A stretch of 64,000 nt of DNA, from the NCBI GenBank assembly GCA_036574205.1, contig JAINCQ010000037.1, forward strand, positions 1 to 64,000, in the 5' to 3' direction. Of this stretch, positions 30,501 through 37,619 are shown in pieces; the first letter of the stretch is position 1, and each line of letters opens with the position of its first letter. The notes beneath the pieces were generated by a model. That model saw nothing but the letters and a program-made list of their open reading frames with translations, did not search any database and was not told the origin of the DNA. This DNA comes from Elusimicrobiota bacterium. Its GTDB lineage: Bacteria > Elusimicrobiota > Elusimicrobia > Elusimicrobiales > UBA9959. The position numbers and the translations under genes were made by a program.

Positions 30501-33500
30501 AAGTATACTTGAATGGTTTGATACTTCTGCTGCAGATATATCATCTTCTCCATCACCAAGTACTTGCCATGTAGATCCATTAAAAACCTCAACCTTATCT
30601 ATTGTCCATTCGCCTCTATTTCCGCCAAAGATAAGGACCCGTCCATCATCCATTAAATGAGCGGTATGGGAATGTCTTTTATAATTTATACTTCCTGGTG
30701 AAGAAAATGTATTTGTGGCTGGATCATATATTTCATAACTTGATAAAACATCTGTTGCATTTATTCCACCAACTATTATAACTCTTCCATCTTTCATCAA
30801 AGTGGCGGTATGTTTTGTTCTTGGATTTGCCATGGAGCCAACTGGAATAAAAATATTTGCTGTAGTTATAAAAAGCTCAGCTGAGCTCAAGTATGTTCCA
30901 GAAGAAACTCCGCCGGTTATAAGAACATTCCCATTTGGAAGGAGGGTTTGAGTGTGTCCAGCTCTTTTATAATTCATCCTGGCTGTTGGGACAAAGGTTT
31001 TAACTGAGGGATAATATATTTCTGCTGAATCAAGTGCTTGAGACTGATTGACATCTCCCTGAACTCCGCCTGTTATAAGAACAGTTCCATTTGGAAGAAG
31101 TGTGTCTCTATGATATGCTCTTGCTTCGGTCATTGTTGAGACAATTGTCCATAAGTCAAGATATTTGTTATATTCTTCACAGATATCAAGGCTTTGTTTC
31201 CCGTCAGTTCCTCCACATACAATCACAGTCCCGTCGTTTAGAACTGTAGTTGTGTGATTAGCTCTTTTAACTTTAAGTCTTGAGAAATCCTTCCATTTAT
31301 CAGATAATTGTTTAATAAGTAGGAAAGCTATGTTAGATGAATAAAATGTCGGGTCAGTTCTAAGACAGTCATTAGCTGGATCTGATTCGCAGTTTCTTCC
31401 ACCTCCTATAATTGGTGTCCCGGATTCTGATATGTTTCCAGTATGATCAAATATTGGGTATGGCTTAAGATAATCTAGAGTAAGTATTTCATCTGGATCA
31501 AAATAAAATTGATTAGTTTTTGGATTAAAGTATGTAATATCAGAGAAAAGCATATCCCTTACAACAGCTCTTGATTCACCTGTATTTATTGTAACACCTT
31601 CACTAGGAGTATTGTAATAAATACCATCTGAAATAAAAGAAAGTTTTACTGTTAAAGAATTTATATTATTTCCGATAAGGCAGTTTTGTATTTCTGTGTT
31701 GTCTAAGGTATAATCTGTAGTATTGGATATCACTCCTGTAAGATTTGAAAATGTTGCACCTGGAAATAAAATATTTTGTCCTGAAACCGGTGCAATGGCA
31801 TCTGAACTCATATCTCCTGCCGATAGTGTTAAATTGCATAAATCACTTGAAAAAGAAAGAGATTTAATAAACATTCTTCCTGTTATGTTATAGCCATTAA
31901 ACATTTTTAATTCTTCAGGAAGTTGGAGCGTTGTGTTCCCAAGAGTTATACTACATCCCGCACAGTCAGAAAACTCTAAAATTTCTCCGCTTGGAATGCT
32001 CGGGGTTAAAGAGCTAAAATCAGCAGTTGAAATTTGAGGGGAATTTAAATTGGTTAATTCTAAAGGATAAAAATAAACTGTAGCGTTTACTTGTAATGGA
32101 TCGGGGGAACTTTTAAGAACAAGATCAGCTTTTAATCTTCTTATTAAATTTCCATTTTCATCATAATATCCAACTGAGGCACCATCTAATTCTGCAGTAG
32201 TCTTGCCTAAGAATATATCCATATTTCCTATTTTTATTGATGGTTTAGGTGGATTAGTAGGTGTGGGTGGTTCATAAAATATATCTCCGTTTATTATTCT
32301 TCCAGTAACTGGTCTTGAAAGTTCTAAATCTTCCTCAAAGCTTACTGTTCCAGATATTGGACCTGTTAGTATCCTTACATCAGACATATCTCCACTCATT
32401 TCCATAGATGAATAATCAAATGTTATAGGCGAGTATGAAGTCAATGAACGTGGCTGAAAGTATGTTACCGGTATATTTCCTCTTCCGCCAAATAATACGA
32501 GTATTCCATCAGGTTTTAACATGGAAAATTGATTTGAAATTCTATATGGTAGAAGTTTATATTGATTGGCTTCTACTGGAACCCTTGCCCCATTTTTATC
32601 AAATATTTCCATAGCATCAACAAATCCCCATGTCCCATGATTTTGTCCTTCTTGTATTTCTTGAGAATCATTATCTTTGCTTTCTATATCATAACCATTA
32701 TATTCATTATAACCACCTATTATGGCAACATTGCTGTTATTTAAAACAACAGCTGAATGATAGATTCTTGAAAAAAATAGAGGTTCTGGAGAAGGAGTAA
32801 AGCTATTCGTTATAGGGTCATATATCTCTTGAGTCGGAGTAAAAGTTGCTGGATTTCCAAGCTGGGTTATTCCACCTGACATCAATACCTTTCCATTAGA
32901 AAGAAGTGAAGCCGTGTGTCCAAACCTTGAAGATGTCATATTTGGTCCAGATTTAAATTGAGTGGTTGATGTTATAAATATTTCACAAGAATTTGTTACA
33001 GTTCCAGCATTAGATTGTCCTCCACATATCAAGACATTTCCTGACTCAGGACCTACAGTTAAAAGCGTTGCTGTGTGCCCTGCTCTTTGCAATAACATAG
33101 TATTGACTATTGGAGAGCATGTATATGGTGGTGATGAAAGACATATTTCAGCTGAGTTTGTTGGTGTTCCGGTTGATATTAGATTTTTTGGGAAGTTATT
33201 GGTATACGGTGAAGGTGGATTGGTTGGATAATGAAAAGAAATTGATGTATAACCTCCTGCTACAAGAATTCTGCCATCTGGAAGCAATGTCATAGTATGA
33301 TTTGTTCTTGAAGTATTTAGAGTTTTTGTCAGGAATGGTGTTCCACCTGCTGATGTTATTATAGGTGTTGAAATTTTTATTAAACATTGATTTGTAACAG
33401 TATTTATACCTGTAACCCCACCACATGTCATTGTATTTGCATTTGGAAGAAGAACTGAAGCAGTGTTAAATTGAGAAAAAAGATTAACTGAACATAATAA

Positions 33501-33536
33501 GATAAACAGAAATAAAATATCCTTCATATTTTTCAT
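27555..33536 (-). CDS. 1993-aa secreted protein: kelch repeats, FN3 repeats and a T9SS-type-A-like C-terminal domain
   Basis: Signal peptide; many R..HT.TLL..G.VL..GG repeats; L.PN..YYFRV.A.N FN3 units; VFPNPF...IYTISGQKV...SGVY tail. Confidence 0.85.
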   Translation of the reverse strand: MKNMKDILFLFILLCSVNLFSQFNTASVLLPNANTMTCGGVTGINTVTNQCLIKISTPIITSAGGTPFLTKTLNTSRTNHTMTLLPDGRILVAGGYTSISFHYPTNPPSPYTNNFPKNLISTGTPTNSAEICLSSPPYTCSPIVNTMLLQRAGHTATLLTVGPESGNVLICGGQSNAGTVTNSCEIFITSTTQFKSGPNMTSSRFGHTASLLSNGKVLMSGGITQLGNPATFTPTQEIYDPITNSFTPSPEPLFFSRIYHSAVVLNNSNVAIIGGYNEYNGYDIESKDNDSQEIQEGQNHGTWGFVDAMEIFDKNGARVPVEANQYKLLPYRISNQFSMLKPDGILVLFGGRGNIPVTYFQPRSLTSYSPITFDYSSMEMSGDMSDVRILTGPISGTVSFEEDLELSRPVTGRIINGDIFYEPPTPTNPPKPSIKIGNMDIFLGKTTAELDGASVGYYDENGNLIRRLKADLVLKSSPDPLQVNATVYFYPLELTNLNSPQISTADFSSLTPSIPSGEILEFSDCAGCSITLGNTTLQLPEELKMFNGYNITGRMFIKSLSFSSDLCNLTLSAGDMSSDAIAPVSGQNILFPGATFSNLTGVISNTTDYTLDNTEIQNCLIGNNINSLTVKLSFISDGIYYNTPSEGVTINTGESRAVVRDMLFSDITYFNPKTNQFYFDPDEILTLDYLKPYPIFDHTGNISESGTPIIGGGRNCESDPANDCLRTDPTFYSSNIAFLLIKQLSDKWKDFSRLKVKRANHTTTVLNDGTVIVCGGTDGKQSLDICEEYNKYLDLWTIVSTMTEARAYHRDTLLPNGTVLITGGVQGDVNQSQALDSAEIYYPSVKTFVPTARMNYKRAGHTQTLLPNGNVLITGGVSSGTYLSSAELFITTANIFIPVGSMANPRTKHTATLMKDGRVIIVGGINATDVLSSYEIYDPATNTFSSPGSINYKRHSHTAHLMDDGRVLIFGGNRGEWTIDKVEVFNGSTWQVLGDGEDDISAAEVSNHSSILLPNKRILITGGEKITSGSLIEYTAKNFITDFYYSRNEALFGDTEKLIRHSSVLLPSNYVMVTGGWTGTDYTDNVKGKYYLFDEPDIYGYDTLTTRKPHISSATLRFDRGDYITIYSSYSNLHSVSDASNSGSGGHQSDFGKPRVILRGINNEFMIDLSSQIYISTFNALNWNVTLSTIIVKTPTTPQELPYGWYYLYVCNAGICSDGYMVQASTPRPICTITNLVAEESASTTSIRWNWNLQTEGNSNGFAIFSASNVFITTVPFPSPLSAPATYYQQGLLPNTPSSIKVGCYNIGGFSDPSTFAVAVSTVYTKANPPSCTRVNYASFDTVEIEWDSNGNNPDFTPYRVDISTYPNFSEYSVALSFVNNYKDTKFTIRNLEPNNRYYFRVKARNGNGVETVYDTQNPNQNCTGVSSTFNTPVSTITVGNIVGLSGTPMTTTSIKWSWNKAGGASGYEIYEYRIGIDPNDPIFKSTIDVSVFLSSTSYPYYTQIGLSTNTAYQVKVRSYKQDAQTYGELVYGPFSISEPVYTLAAVPSPAQPNVFTYITTGSFKVSWDSNGNDADIEKGINTRYRLDISETPTFSNYTSYEVTPDSTTLPIVSEYARDLKPNRRYYARVYAINKEGRMTEEAASLGSKYTLAQEVARVYVSSVSLTGVTVNWDPQENSPETIYELRATSVSFESPFISTPIPFGSEYKDTSYTVNGLWIRTTYYFDVAARNAEGVETARIQTTTPAVTLPGPQGAPPASISGLTSPSEDTTISGNLIDNRPVVLFIPKESFTTPQPIAIAKLDSNNCGYTFGGSTITFGIYANEQPYVPITFTFDYFSSEAVNPSSPPDIHTNKSRVVLARYNPQTGQCLPVKTTINEGLRKITAELNHFSIYQLILVQPSSDLNNIKVFPNPFYPNRPGQGMITITNLPDDAKLTIYTISGQKVYETAADATGTAYWHGKNSSGQLVGSGVYLCVIKSRVGKKTIKLAIER

Positions 33537-33588
33537 CTATATATATAATAGCAAAATTTTATTAAAAAAATATTAAACTTTTGTAAAA

Positions 33589-34095
33589 TCATTTAACTTC
33601 TAAAATTGAGTATTTCCCATCTTTTGTTTTATTTGCTTTTGGATCTAAAACTTTATTCCCGTCAACAATAAAAAAATATCTATACTCGCCAGGATCTTTT
33701 ATAAAAACTTCATACTCCCACTCTCCCGCATTTACTTTCTTCATATCTTTTTCTTTCCATCCGAAAAAACTTGCATTTATTTTTACTTTTTTAGCCTTTT
33801 TATTCTGATATTTGATTTTTATTTTTTGTGACTTTAAGGTGTGATTTTGCTTCTGAGCTTCAGGAGTTATTTGCTGATTTATTGGAGAAGTATCGGTTTT
33901 AACTTCGTTTTTTTGATCTGCTGTTTCATTTAGCTTAATTTGTTCGGCTGGTGAGTTTTTTTTAACAATTTTCGCCTCAGATATTTCAATCGTATCACCA
34001 TAAAGATATACACTAACTCTATTATAAATCATTTTTCCCGAAAAAACCATCAATATTACAGTTATAATTATTTTTAAAATTAATTTATTTTTCAT
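33589..34095 (-). CDS. Membrane-anchored glycogen-binding (AMPK-beta/CBM48-like) domain protein
   Basis: N-terminal TM; AKKV...ASFFGW...M...GEW...PGEYRYFFIVDG..VLDP. Confidence 0.78.
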   Translation of the reverse strand: MKNKLILKIIITVILMVFSGKMIYNRVSVYLYGDTIEISEAKIVKKNSPAEQIKLNETADQKNEVKTDTSPINQQITPEAQKQNHTLKSQKIKIKYQNKKAKKVKINASFFGWKEKDMKKVNAGEWEYEVFIKDPGEYRYFFIVDGNKVLDPKANKTKDGKYSILEVK

Positions 34096-34171
34096 ATTTA
34101 CCTCGCAAGCTTATATATAGAAACTCCCCTTTGCATAAATATTACCTTCCGTGACGATTTAATTGCTATAT

Positions 34172-34256
34172 CCTCTCTCCTTTTTTGGAGAGGGTTAGGG
34201 GGAGGAAATTTATTTTTCACCCTCATCCTTCACCTTCCCCCATCAAGGGGGAAGGA
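34172..34256. repeat. Inverted pair of boxC-like palindromic elements
   Basis: CTCTCC-TTTTTT-GGAGAG-GGTTAGGGGGAGG, then CCCTCATCCTTCA-CCTTCCCCC-ATCAA-GGGGGAAGG in the opposite orientation. Confidence 0.6.
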
Positions 34257-34284
34257 ATTTTAATATCTCAAAAGAACTCTCTCA

Positions 34285-34699
34285 GAGATAAATTTTGCTC
34301 ACCGCTCATTTTTTCTCAAACCCTTGCTCCTCGCAAAACTGTAAGCGCAAGTTTTGCTGCGGACTTTCAAGTCACGCATAACCTTGTCGGCTTGCGCGAC
34401 CCCGCCTCGTTCGCCTGCATTGCCCAAAGCGAACTGCGGCCTTGCGAACAGCACGCGAAACCGTTTGAGGTTTCGCTCTAAAGGCAGTCCTCACCCGTGC
34501 AAAGCCAAACCATTGGGTTTGCTCAGAACCAGCAAGCGGGCGATGGGAATCGGTTGCAAATAAAATTCGCTCACCGCTCATTTTTTCGCAACCCGCCCCT
34601 CGTCCGACTGTATAGCCAAAGTCGGACTGCGGGCTTTCGATTCCCACGCAAAGCCTATCGGCTTTGCTCAGAACCAGCAAGCGGGCGATGGGAATCGAA
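34285..34699 (-). repeat. GC-rich modular hairpin array downstream of tRNA-Gly, putative structured RNA
   Basis: Three CCTCG-stem-CTGCGG modules, four GC-stem-GC hairpins, two GCTCACCGCTCATTTT modules; stem sequences differ but stay paired. Confidence 0.75.
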
Positions 34700-34814
34700 C
34701 CCTATGCCGCTATGGTTGCTCAAATAGAGCTTCCCAGCGGGCGATGGGAATCGAACCCTGTGCCGCTATGGTCGCTCAAATAGAGCTTCCCAGCGGGCGA
34801 TGGGAATCGAACCC
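34680..34814 (-). repeat. 56-bp tandem repeat containing the 23-nt tRNA-Gly 3' end
   Basis: AGCGGGCGATGGGAATCGAACCC begins at 34680, 34736 and 34792; the two 33-bp spacers differ at 2 positions. Confidence 0.95.
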
Positions 34815-34862
34815 ACGTCTAAAGCTTGGGAAGCTCTCGTTCTACCATTGAACTACGCCCGC
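34792..34862 (-). tRNA. tRNA-Gly(CCC), CCA not encoded
   Basis: GCGGGCG acceptor stem, D arm, AGAGC-TTCCCAA-GCTTT anticodon arm, GGTTCGATTCC T arm, U discriminator. Confidence 0.97.
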
Positions 34863-34897
34863 ATCTTATTATACCTTTATAAAATTATACTAAAAAA

Positions 34898-35443
34898 TCA
34901 TCTATTTTTTATTAAACTCAAAAATTCATTTCTTATTTTTTCGTCTTTTTCAAAACAACCAAGCATTGAACTAGTTATAGCTATTGATGTTTCATTCCTT
35001 ACTCCTCTTGATGTCATGCACAGATGTTGAGCCTCTATTATAACTCCAACCCCTTTTGGTTTTATTTTCTCAAATATAGTTTTTGATATTTCAACAGTAA
35101 GCCTTTCTTGAATTTGTAGCCTTCTTGAAAAAACTTCTACAATTCTAGGAATTTTGGAAAGGCCTATTATAACTCCATCTGGAATATATGCAACATGTGC
35201 CTTGCCAAAAAATGGAAGAAGGTGGTGTTCACAAGTCGAATAAAATGTTATGTCTTTTACTATAACCATCTCTTTATAATCAACTTTGAAAAAAGCGCCG
35301 TTTAAAACTTTATCTATATCCTGAGAATACCCACTAAAAATTTCACCCAATGCCTTCCTTACCCTTTCCGGGGTTTTTATAAGACCTTCCCTTTTCGGAT
35401 TATCCCCTATCTTTTTAATTAGTTCTTCTATGTTTTTTTCCAT
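34898..35443 (-). CDS. folE: GTP cyclohydrolase I
   Basis: TPERV, CEHHLLPF, GLSKIPR, RLQIQERL and HLCMTSRG motifs. Confidence 0.97.
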   Translation of the reverse strand: MEKNIEELIKKIGDNPKREGLIKTPERVRKALGEIFSGYSQDIDKVLNGAFFKVDYKEMVIVKDITFYSTCEHHLLPFFGKAHVAYIPDGVIIGLSKIPRIVEVFSRRLQIQERLTVEISKTIFEKIKPKGVGVIIEAQHLCMTSRGVRNETSIAITSSMLGCFEKDEKIRNEFLSLIKNR

Positions 35444-35508
35444 AAAATAATTTTATCAAATTTAAGATATTATTTTAAACTTTTTTATTATTTATTTACT
35501 ATTGGATT

Positions 35509-36045
35509 TTATTTTTTACCAGAGTTTGCTATGTAAAGCCATTTTGAAGAGGCAGATACTTTATTTGAAGCCTTTAAAGCTTCGTCAAGGGATTTGTTAA
35601 TTTCAATAAAATTTTTATTTAATATAATTAACTCCTTTCCTTTTGATTTTTTGTTTGAGGGAGACATCCTGTATTTTGGTGTATTTTTTTGTGAAATTAG
35701 CTTTTTTACCTTTAATAATTTTACTCTTATTTTGTTAGAATATAGTTTCATTAATTTAAAATACTTTAAATTTTCTTTATCTACTTTTAAATCTATTAGC
35801 ATAGCACGTTGTTTTAACGCTATTTTTTCCATATCATTTTTAGCACATATTAATTCTTCTGCTGATATTTTGCTATTTGGATTTGATAATATTTTATCAA
35901 GAGCATTATCTACCTTTACAAAATCAAATAAGATTGCTTCAAATTCATTATCATAAGTATTAGTTTGGATGTTTTTAGAAAAAGATGTTTTTACAAATAA
36001 GAATGTTGTGGCAGATAATATTATAATAATTTTTATAACTTTCAT
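35509..36045 (-). CDS. Hypothetical exported protein
   Basis: 178-aa ORF with an AGGAG SD and a signal-peptide-like N-terminus. Confidence 0.6.
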   Translation of the reverse strand: MKVIKIIIILSATTFLFVKTSFSKNIQTNTYDNEFEAILFDFVKVDNALDKILSNPNSKISAEELICAKNDMEKIALKQRAMLIDLKVDKENLKYFKLMKLYSNKIRVKLLKVKKLISQKNTPKYRMSPSNKKSKGKELIILNKNFIEINKSLDEALKASNKVSASSKWLYIANSGKK

Positions 36046-36161
36046 AAATTACTCCTATAAATATTACTCGATTAATAAAAAAGCTTAGTGAACTCTAATT
36101 ATTTTATATATCATCTTTTTTGATTATAAAAGGGGCAATGGTTTTAAGAAAAAATGGGACC

Positions 36162-37619
36162 TTAGGGTATCTTAAGAGTTTTTATATAGTTTATTGCTTG
36201 TTTCTGAGTTTTTATTTTACCTTCAAGTTGTAGATTTATTAGTTTTTTCAGTATTTTCCCAACATTCGGTCCAGATGGTATATTAAGATTTTTCATTATA
36301 GTATCCCCATTTATAAGAGGCTTTATATCGGATTTTGAATTATATTTTTCATAATTTTTAATTATTGAGTTTACAACCTGTAAAAATCTTAATGTTTTTT
36401 TAAATCCAGTCCTAGGTAATTTGTTTGTTATTGCAAATGGCTTTGCCTTTGTTTTTTTATAAGATTTTTCAAGTTTTTTTTCACTTATATAACTTGAATG
36501 ATCACCCCATGATAATATCAAAAGTCCAAGTGCTGCCTCTTTTAAATCATAAAATATTCTCAATATAGCTTTTTGCGTTATTATATTATTATGTGCAATA
36601 TTGCCTATCCTGAGATGATTTGCTATTATTGTTTTTATATACTTTATTTCATTATTTGAAAACCTATAATCTCTTAATATTCTTTCTGCAAGTATTGCCC
36701 CATATTCTTCATGACCAAAAAATCTGAGCCTGTTGTCTATAACCTTTGCTTTATGAGGCTTTGCAATATCATGCAAAAGAGCGGCCATTTTTATTTCGTT
36801 TTTTCGGTTTTCTATTTCTTCTATAACTTTTTTTGAAGCAGATAAATACTTTTTTGGTGAAAGATAAAGTATATCAAGTCTTTTCAGGACATTAAAGGTG
36901 TGTTTTAATACACCTCCCTTACCATAATAGATTTCAGCGCATTTTATCTGAGATTTAAGAATAGGTAGAATTTCAAATAAAACTTCACTTTCAGCCATTT
37001 TTTTAAATACTGAAGATGAGTTATCAGATTTAAGTATTTTTAAAATCTCTTCCCTTATCCTCTCCTTAGCGGAAAGAGAAATAAGCTTCTTACAGTCAAC
37101 TATTTCTTTATGTGTTTTTGGGCTTATTTTAAAGCCCCAAGACATAAATCTATATGCTCTTAAAATTCTCAAAGGGTCATCATGAAAACTTTCTGGAGTA
37201 ATAGTTTTTATAATTTTATGTTTTAAATCTTTTATCCCTCCAGTTAAATTTATTATGTTTTTTGGGTTTAGCCTTAAATTAAATTTTTCATTTGTTATCT
37301 TTATGTTGGAGTTTTTTAATGGCACGGTAAGAGAATTTATTGTAAAATCCCTTTTGAATATGTCGGAGTTTATATCGTCTATGCGGGAAATATCTACAGT
37401 GAGATTTTTGAAGAGATTTATTCTGTATATTCCTCTTTCCTTATCAAGAGGAAAGATGTTATATTTGTTTGATATTTTTTTTAGTATCTCAAAAAAAAAT
37501 TTTGGGTTAGCGGATATAACAATATCAATATCGTATATATCTTCTTTAAGAAAATAATCTCTTATGGCTCCGCCAACGAGATAAGTTTCATAATCTCTTA
37601 ATAAATAAAACAAATCCAT
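36162..37619 (-). CDS. Class II tRNA nucleotidyltransferase with HD domain, probably CC-adding
   Basis: VGGAIRD...DIDI, KRDFTIN, DDPLRILR, ERIREE and LLHDIAK motifs. Confidence 0.88.
   Translation of the reverse strand: MDLFYLLRDYETYLVGGAIRDYFLKEDIYDIDIVISANPKFFFEILKKISNKYNIFPLDKERGIYRINLFKNLTVDISRIDDINSDIFKRDFTINSLTVPLKNSNIKITNEKFNLRLNPKNIINLTGGIKDLKHKIIKTITPESFHDDPLRILRAYRFMSWGFKISPKTHKEIVDCKKLISLSAKERIREEILKILKSDNSSSVFKKMAESEVLFEILPILKSQIKCAEIYYGKGGVLKHTFNVLKRLDILYLSPKKYLSASKKVIEEIENRKNEIKMAALLHDIAKPHKAKVIDNRLRFFGHEEYGAILAERILRDYRFSNNEIKYIKTIIANHLRIGNIAHNNIITQKAILRIFYDLKEAALGLLILSWGDHSSYISEKKLEKSYKKTKAKPFAITNKLPRTGFKKTLRFLQVVNSIIKNYEKYNSKSDIKPLINGDTIMKNLNIPSGPNVGKILKKLINLQLEGKIKTQKQAINYIKTLKIP

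Follow-up and report, generated by a model that had tools for sequence, protein, structure and literature searches.

To our knowledge, the function of the RtT repeats that follow the transfer RNA (tRNA) gene tyrT of Escherichia coli is still unclear. We examined the tyrT-tyrV region of E. coli K-12 (NC_000913.3, 1286000–1288000; locus at 705–1263 of that piece), in which Tandem Repeats Finder (TRF) detects a 178-bp repeat in 3.1 copies. Three units end with a 19-nt sense copy of the tRNA (AATCCTTCCCCCACCACCA), and ~100 nt before the sense copy lies a 10-nt antisense segment (GGGGAAGGAT), which is the reverse complement of tRNA-Tyr positions 68–77 in the T arm. Exactly this outer helix is part of the Rfam consensus structure of RtT (RF00391), which further comprises an internal domain of several helices and a 3′ tail left free. 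The tyrT locus contains no anticodon-arm complement of 8 nt or more. A fourth RtT copy is present between tyrT and tyrV in E. coli K-12. Here we analyze the trailer of a tRNA-Gly(CCC) gene in a 64,000-nt stretch of DNA (the window; positions 1–64,000 of contig JAINCQ010000037.1, assembly GCA_036574205.1) from an Elusimicrobiota bacterium. The original prediction for this stretch drew attention to a trailer segment antisense to the tRNA's own anticodon arm. Our favored reading, held with moderate confidence, is that the trailer carries a miniature, recently duplicated RtT-type repeat belonging to a lineage-wide, tRNA-tracking module family, and that the anticodon complementarity is a by-product.

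The tRNA-Gly(CCC) gene, on the minus strand at 34862–34792, is the single tRNA gene that ARAGORN detects in the window, and two 56-nt units follow it directly:

34792–34862, minus strand: tRNA-Gly(CCC) gene, 71 nt, no encoded CCA (ARAGORN; Rfam tRNA, 71.6 bits).
34827–34837, minus strand: segment to which the trailer is complementary (AGAGCUUCCCA), spanning the anticodon-stem 5′ strand, U32-U33, the anticodon CCC and A37 (pattern search, inverted-repeat finder).
34801–34806, minus strand: second UUCCCA copy, in the T-loop/T-stem 3′ strand, to which the trailer UGGGAA is complementary equally well (sequence; hairpin TTCCCATCGCCCGCTGGGAA listed).
34782–34792, minus strand: 11-mer antisense to the anticodon arm (UGGGAAGCUCU), formed by the discriminator U and the 10 nt that open unit 1 (pattern search, inverted-repeat finder).
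34736–34791, minus strand: unit 1, 56 nt, consisting of GGGAAGCUCU, a 23-nt linker and a 23-nt tRNA 3′-end copy at 34736–34758 (TRF, sequence; spanned by Logan contig record 7 with 0 differences).
34726–34736, minus strand: identical 11-mer at the junction of units 1 and 2 (pattern search, inverted-repeat finder).
34680–34735, minus strand: unit 2, 56 nt, 2 substitutions relative to unit 1, with its 3′-end copy at 34680–34702 (TRF, sequence; Logan contig record 6).

On the tRNA strand, the unit is composed of a 10-nt segment (GGGAAGCTCT), the 23-nt linker and a 23-nt segment (GGGTTCGATTCCCATCGCCCGCT) that equals tRNA positions 49–71 and is identical at 23/23 nt in both units, which differ from each other at 2/56 positions, both within the linker. 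TRF reports a tandem repeat with a period of 56 nt (34680–34814, 2.4 copies, 97% matches) that starts at the discriminator. The antisense part of the unit is 10 nt long, or 11 nt counting the discriminator, and the limits of the complement coincide exactly with the discriminator and the anticodon-stem base. The 11-mer (AGAGCTTCCCA) occurs at 34726–34736 and 34782–34792 on the plus strand and at 34827–34837 on the minus strand, three matches versus 0.00 expected from 100 window shuffles. Both anticodon-arm/trailer pairs are inverted repeats of 11 nt with 100% complementarity. All coordinates and sequence statements of the original prediction are correct according to ARAGORN, TRF, the pattern search and the inverted repeats, and its comparison with E. 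coli tyrT is apt, as tyrT repeats also carry an antisense tRNA segment, one that is anti-T rather than anti-anticodon.

tRNA-Gly(CCC) contains the hexamer TTCCCA at two places, the anticodon loop (positions 31–36, cUUCCCAa) and the T arm (positions 57–62, gaUUCCCAuc; window 34801–34806); hence, the T arm is as good a partner for the first 6 nt of the 11-mer as the anticodon loop is. Because the anticodon loop also contains UUCCCA, an anti-T segment in this trailer also faces the anticodon, and 6 of the 11 complementary nt are the anti-T segment that is to be expected. Consistently, a UUCCCA-8 nt-UGGGAA hairpin between the tRNA 3′ end and the unit start is listed among the predicted hairpins. 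The remaining 5 nt, GCUCU, which in the unit supply the 5′ strand of a small hairpin (GCUC-UAUUU-GAGC), carry the match on over the full 5′ strand of the anticodon stem; they may have been copied from the tRNA or be accidental.

Tandem units at a repeat-rich locus could be products of mis-assembly, and many contigs of this assembly do break at repeat-bearing tRNA trailers. However, two Logan contigs span all three junctions with 0 differences, one covering module A (described below), unit 2 and unit 1 (34668–34747) and the other unit 2, unit 1 and the tRNA (34729–34803), with a depth of ~10 versus 12.6 for the flanking 78-kb contig, and the units differ from each other at 2 positions. An assembly artefact is thus barely credible. 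The Logan contigs come from the single public run with this DNA, which is possibly the source sample; hence the repeats are supported beyond the one assembly and are not one assembler's artefact, yet the run gives them no independent biological support. The locus is present in one public DNA run only, and RNA runs contain small shares of conserved tRNA words.

The units are followed by further GC-rich sequence. In all, the trailer behind tRNA-Gly(CCC) extends over 600 nt with a GC content of 54–58%, versus 31% for the genome, and past the units it is made up of the following features:

34535–34679, minus strand: module A, 145 nt, an RtT-like structured element with an anti-T segment at 34636–34646 and an 18-nt tRNA 3′-end copy at 34535–34552 (four-helix structure with covariation).
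34265–34534, minus strand: further members of the dispersed module family, of the B type and, at the end, a partial module A (matches to 28 genome regions).
34233–34255, minus strand: 23-nt hairpin CCTTCCCCCTTGATGGGGGAAGG closing the GC-rich trailer, a separate dispersed repeat (terminator-like site on the plus strand; 36 genome copies).

In the 1.85-Mb genome, 28 regions match the stretch past the units; 22 of them begin at most 95 nt from the 3′ end of a same-strand tRNA. Among the other six, one lies further along such a trailer, four abut a contig end on the upstream side, and one is without a tRNA. Module A, the commonest module (~145 nt), contains two parts that vary with the tRNA upstream. 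The first, 9–11 nt at ~+35 of the trailer, is antisense to the T loop and T-stem 3′ strand of its own tRNA, while the second, at the module end, is an 18–19-nt sense copy of its own tRNA from the T loop to the discriminator. In this genome, 13/43 tRNAs have a sense copy (11–23 nt) of their own 3′ end in the trailer, and 12 of the 43 have the antisense T-arm segment (9–11 nt, ~+35), 14 having been counted, of which two represent convergent neighboring tRNAs. Both parts accompany 16/21 tRNAs of relatives, a set of 20 loci from three relatives that were picked for matching the module.

An alignment of 22 module A copies from four genomes and 15 tRNA species reveals four helices, with 93.5% of cells paired and two-sided changes in 19/35 pairs. 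No shuffle out of 500 is equally good, and slid controls reach 39–52% paired. In particular, helix 1 is formed by the anti-T segment with the T copy (7 pairs, 98.7% paired, two-sided changes in 3), and the fold leaves the acceptor 3′ strand as a tail. These data demonstrate a module family with tRNA-specific tracking of the T arm and a parallel to RtT. By analogy, module A can be said to work like RtT, of which it is not a member by sequence: the RF00391 covariance model, which scores 133–138 bits on the E. coli RtT copies, has no match at E ≤ 1 in window positions 33000–36500 and matches 0/7 candidates in the whole genome. Within the same interval of the window, tRNA is the sole Rfam family with a match at E ≤ 1.

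The module-bearing tRNAs differ between the two module-rich species of the genus, as Thr(CGU), Val(CAC), Val(UAC) and Pro(GGG) bear a module in the congener G001 and none here. In a scan with the module motif, records with multiple matches are mostly titled Elusimicrobium, Elusimicrobia or Elusimicrobiales. Full-text searches, which returned sources mostly at abstract level, yielded no description of such trailers, and the wider system, an RtT-like architecture behind at least 22 tRNA genes, seems to be undescribed in the literature searched.

Three side observations concern the distribution of these repeats. The tRNA-less region (contig 30, 1–112) has no tRNA or Rfam RNA detectable upstream; the start of its module copy is identical to that of the copy behind tRNA-Asn, and the preceding non-tRNA sequence shares only GGAGC with the tRNA end. 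Contig 30 is 3 kb long, with no Rfam RNA on it and module sequence at both ends. One Acidobacteriota record set, representing a single unrelated genome, gives five matches of equal length (39 nt) to the module pattern AAAGYCCGCAG..CGAGGRGCGG, possibly another dispersed repeat. The perfect hairpin CCTTCCCCCTTGATGGGGGAAGG has 36 genome copies on both strands with at most 2 substitutions, that is, the window copy and 35 others; it is often found at the end of tRNA-trailer arrays and also far from tRNAs, and, read on the opposite strand, it precedes a T-run and has a terminator-like score.

We propose that the two 56-nt units would be the youngest, species-specific layer of structured repeats added to tRNA 3′ ends in this Elusimicrobiota family. 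Each unit would present an anti-T segment first, a folded interior, and then the sense tRNA copy from the T arm to the discriminator, and the antisense and sense segments could close the unit by an outer helix that leaves the acceptor 3′ strand as a free tail. Specifically, UGGGAA at the 5′ edge of the unit would face UUCCCA either in its own T-arm copy or in the preceding 3′ end. As direct repeats of the tRNA 3′ end offer an obvious route to precise loss and tandem growth, the arrays may gain and lose units when the direct 3′-end copies recombine or slip. By analogy with RtT, the trailer would be co-transcribed and cut at its tRNA-like ends. The anticodon complementarity would have no selected role of its own.

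The proposal that such trailers complement the anticodon arm of their own tRNA, and change with the anticodon, finds little support at other loci. With a threshold of 9 nt or more in the own trailer, an anticodon-arm complement is present in 0/42 other tRNAs of the genome, a motif coincidence at tRNA-Ala(CGC) aside, and in 0/21 tRNAs of relatives; in 16/21 of the latter the T arm is tracked, the anticodon arm never. The complementarity is also not kept at the orthologous tRNA-Gly(CCC) loci of the same genus, 0/2 of which have the units: G001 carries module A alone, and modules are absent from G002. The synteny of folE and tRNA-Gly(CCC) holds across the family. In the exception, tRNA-Ala(CGC), the complementary 10-mer GAACGAGGCG corresponds to the conserved module motif CGAACGAGGCG. 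As a side observation, the module B motif GCGAACGAGGCG (copies at, e.g., window 34395–34412) complements 12 nt of the tRNA-Ala(CGC) anticodon arm (CGCCTCGTTCGC; contig 8, 107843–107916), over the same tRNA span as in the tRNA-Gly(CCC) case. We take the match of GCGAACGAGGCG as a coincidence of the motif with one tRNA.

We further compared 52 tRNA-Gly(CCC) genes, the one in the window and 51 others of the family. Their trailers contain 82 GGGAA sites, at which a 5-nt extension of the match occurs only in both units of the window and at one site of G003, a genome of another genus; three sites are extended by 4 nt and six by 2 nt, all in one other genus. A complement of at least 10 nt is thus found at 1/51 other family loci, that of G003, where the matched 10-mer GGGAAGCACT faces AGTGCTTCCC of its own tRNA-Gly(CCC). 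The 10-mer occurs nowhere else in the G003 genome, the contig ends 10 nt further on, and a search for the continuation of the G003 trailer past the contig end found none.

The following points weigh against a mere by-product of a module family. First, in G003, GGGAAGCACT faces its own AGTGCUUCCC and is followed by UUCUUUC-GUGC, so that GGGAA is combined with a 4-bp hairpin (GCAC/GUGC) in the same design as in the unit; judged by sequence, this looks like a compensated version in which the stem pair is swapped in step with the tRNA. Second, we built an empirical null in which 151 anticodon arms were each paired with the trailers of other tRNA species. An anticodon-arm complement of at least 10 nt occurs in 1/3932 such mismatched pairs, which makes the 5-nt extension unlikely by chance, and in 2/151 true pairs (the window locus and G003); without the discovery locus, 1/150 true pairs (G003) compares with 0.04 expected. 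Third, the outer helix of the 56-nt unit (UGGGAA/UUCCCA) has only 6 bp, and its two near-identical copies are beyond the reach of covariation. Fourth, the 33 non-tRNA nt of the unit are without a detectable relative, so descent from the module family is suggested by architecture rather than by demonstrated homology. We conclude that pure chance is unlikely for the 5-nt extension, and the evidence for selection is one truncated locus, that of G003.

These counts also bear on the view that an arbitrary 33-nt filler happens to complement the anticodon arm, as would be expected somewhere in a large scan. Very many tRNAs were scanned, module motifs do hit tRNAs by accident (GCGAACGAGGCG against tRNA-Ala(CGC), GGGAAGCTC against tRNA-Gly(CCC)), and broad pattern scans gave chance matches only. 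Specifically, a search of 185,579 species genomes for CCCATCRCCCGCT followed by 0–4 nt and GGGAAGC returned 22 matches, none of them in a tRNA-Gly(CCC) trailer, and the 18-mer GGGAAGCTCTATTTGAGC has 21 matches in metagenome contigs, none of them behind a tRNA end. However, with the frequency in mismatched pairs given above, the window expectation of 0.00 and the second matched case in G003, we find pure coincidence decidedly improbable.

In another genus, the motif GGGAAGCTC is present at nine loci, with AGAGC and AGTGC tRNA stems alike. The element at these loci reads anti-3′-end ... GGGGA-AGCTCGCTGACGCTCGC ... sense 3′ end, with GCTC kept with either stem, and GGGAAGCTC is exact at 9/13 sites from four genomes, among which are sites behind tRNA-Trp(CCA) and tRNA-Gly(UCC). 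Since it is kept with either stem and occurs behind other tRNAs, GGGAAGCTC is intrinsic to the module and uninformative on anticodon tracking. On the same grounds, namely its presence behind tRNA-Trp(CCA) and tRNA-Gly(UCC), we rejected the idea that this element is an inverted tRNA-Gly(CCC) pseudogene that tracks the anticodon. The core of the other genus's module has 0 matches with at most 3 substitutions in the genome analyzed here. Two further trailer types were noted. In four genomes of another genus, a second module type of ~57 nt consists of a 12–15-nt complement of the resident tRNA 3′ end, TTCCTTAT, GGGGAAGCTCGCTGACGCTCGC and a sense copy of the acceptor 3′ strand, which includes CCA where it is encoded; it is located behind tRNA-Trp, Gly(UCC), Gly(GCC) and Gly(CCC). 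In G007, the tRNA-Gly(CCC) trailer has tandem ~87-nt units that end with CATCGCCCGCTC and contain CGGGAAT (anti-T) and GGGAAG, in an array that is partly N-masked.

The source of the unit's non-tRNA sequence was sought in several ways. The 33 non-tRNA nt have no other copy in their own genome, where only chance words of 10–13 nt are matched, and across 79 other genomes of the family the matches are confined to the 23-nt tRNA part of the unit. The similarity of these 33 nt to module starts (168/500 shuffles equally good) and to whole trailers (91/300) is not significant. Accordingly, we rejected as unsupported a resemblance of the 33 nt to the module A 5′ end, the module B start or the module A 3′ end (TATTTG..CGACC). 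Equally unsupported is a decayed sense copy of tRNA positions 28–50 within the unit, for which 1810/5000 shuffles are equally good in a global comparison. For the 23-nt linker compared with the tRNA on either strand, 1369–1565 of 2000 shuffles match the local score.

The antisense segment might instead be the footprint of a copying error, by foldback or by a template switch either between the UUCCCA hexamers or in the anticodon arm, that was then amplified with the unit and is non-random and functionless. The complement is bounded exactly by the discriminator and the anticodon-stem base, the 6-nt microhomology between T arm and anticodon loop provides a possible switch point, and the anticodon arm of tRNA-Gly(CCC) is an almost perfect palindrome, with 7 bp around CCC. 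Furthermore, antisense T-arm copies are regular in trailers of this lineage and in E. coli RtT, and G003 matches its own stem variant. Set against this are a linker that is not significantly tRNA-like on either strand, an event that is itself beyond reconstruction, and the failure to implicate any polymerase or enzyme; a search of the genome (95% complete) yielded no reverse transcriptase domain (RVT_1). A footprint of tRNA-templated copying, as the original prediction had suggested, is therefore compatible with the data, and we consider it rather unlikely.

The same prediction inferred a gating of maturation or a sequestration of tRNA-Gly(CCC), and for both of these our calculations yield thermodynamic plausibility only. 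As a cis-acting gate, trailer UGGGAAGCUCU would pair with the anticodon arm (11 bp), hold pre-tRNA-Gly(CCC) in a non-cloverleaf form until the trailer is removed, and thereby delay or tune maturation. The 11-bp duplex is worth −19 kcal/mol, and the minimum-free-energy fold of the 326-nt precursor includes the anticodon-trailer helix, in agreement with the predicted alternative fold. At 37–75 °C, nearest-neighbor ensembles give this helix a share of 0.44–0.53 for the tRNA plus 10 nt, 0.0001–0.5 for the tRNA plus one unit and 0.06–0.32 for the tRNA plus two units. Terminator prediction reveals no convincing terminator between the tRNA and the units, and the matched 10-mer in G003 also fits a gate. 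However, the complement is absent from 2/2 congeners and, at 9 nt or more, from the other tRNAs here and in relatives; the folding model leaves out tRNA tertiary structure, co-transcriptional order and competing partners of the segment; and such competitors exist in a local hairpin that includes the segment and in the T arm, with which it can also pair. The alternative fold is thus possible in the model, the ensembles do not establish its formation, and we regard such a gate as unlikely.

Alternatively, the units could be excised as 56-nt RNAs that bind mature tRNA-Gly(CCC) by its anticodon loop and act in trans as a sponge. Each unit has a tRNA-like 3′ end, as do the E. coli RtT units, one of which encodes the small RNA RttR (PMC3318445), and the unit alone has a predicted fold of −19.9 kcal/mol (z = −2.1). 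However, mature tRNA exposes only the 7-nt loop, the antisense segment is paired in the unit's own predicted fold, and conservation is lacking. A sponge is therefore highly improbable. A more general form of gating would make the RtT-like trailers cis-acting 'anti-tRNA' guides that toggle between the tRNA and its decoy copy, gate precursor folding and 3′ processing, and have spread to more than half of the tRNA genes in a hot-spring lineage by tRNA-templated copying. As part of this joint claim, the guide segment would be rewritten from the resident tRNA, matching the T arm everywhere and at tRNA-Gly(CCC) the anticodon arm too. We consider the claim as a whole quite unlikely.

The neighboring genes encode an AMPK1_CBM-like protein, folE and a CCA-adding enzyme, and none of the 5 neighboring open reading frames (ORFs) is an integrase, a transposase or a reverse transcriptase. 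The gene order folE, tRNA-Gly(CCC), small AMPK1_CBM-like membrane protein is kept across the family. The CCA-adding enzyme gene, at 36162–37619 (PolyA_pol head, HD and tRNA_NucTran2_2 domains), is located 1.3 kb upstream of the CCA-less tRNA-Gly(CCC). The recombinases of the genome are two Xer-like proteins of ~300 aa, encoded elsewhere and unlinked to the modules. Three weak Y1_Tnp ORFs (RAYT/IS200-like, HUH motif) are present on contig 7 (33381–34088 and 37015–37686) and contig 36 (32420–32905), one of which has an in-frame TGA. We rejected them as mobilizers of the modules, as the short GC-rich hairpins that flank two of them (e.g., CCGGACTGACCGGGGCGGTCAGTCCGAGG) are unlike the tRNA modules. 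A fluoride riboswitch (RF01734, 42.6 bits) on contig 17 (L281, 1114–1185) lies ~0.8 kb from a contig-end module array.

In our judgement, the module system is more interesting than the anticodon match itself. The lineage offers dozens of independent copies of the RtT architecture, behind at least 15 tRNA species across the sampled genomes and each fitted to its own tRNA. Such copies prove the outer anti-T helix by covariation, and they make the lineage a natural system for studying the role of the trailer and the gain of tRNA-specific segments. The anticodon complement is real but neither conserved nor general, and hence is not to be taken as a new regulatory principle without RNA data. The tRNA-Gly(CCC) locus is nevertheless a useful handle, as one site at which a trailer can be predicted to compete with the anticodon arm.

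Several known systems share features with this trailer. T-box riboswitches are likewise RNA segments that offer the complement of a tRNA anticodon; they are elements of mRNA leaders, with conserved motifs, and their action on mature tRNA is in trans. No Rfam T-box match is found at the tRNA-Gly(CCC) locus, where the element is a tRNA trailer rather than an mRNA leader, and the complement here, unlike that of a T-box, reaches into the anticodon stem, which is unexposed in the folded tRNA. Some tRNA 3′ external transcribed spacers, such as 3′ETS-leuZ, are functional trailers released by processing; they pair with small RNAs and are not known to pair with their own tRNA or to contain repeats or tRNA-derived segments. 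Integrative elements leave attL/attR duplications of tRNA 3′ ends, which resemble the present repeats in being direct tRNA 3′-end repeats that begin in the T loop. Unlike att duplications, the repeats here are separated by 33 nt (~125 nt in module A), lack an integrase or cargo, and match each of many different tRNAs. Quasipalindrome or template-switch mutation generates perfect short inverted copies beside hairpin-prone DNA such as an anticodon arm, and may be the origin of the 5-nt extension.

The RtT repeats of E. coli differ from this family in unit length (178 nt versus 56 nt, or 145 nt for module A), in distribution (one operon versus at least 22 tRNA genes in this lineage) and in lacking sequence or covariance-model similarity to it. 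They are like the trailers here in that tandem same-strand units lie directly 3′ of a tRNA gene, each with a terminal sense copy that runs from the T loop to the tRNA 3′ end, and like module A in that an upstream anti-T segment forms the outer helix and the acceptor 3′ strand is left free.

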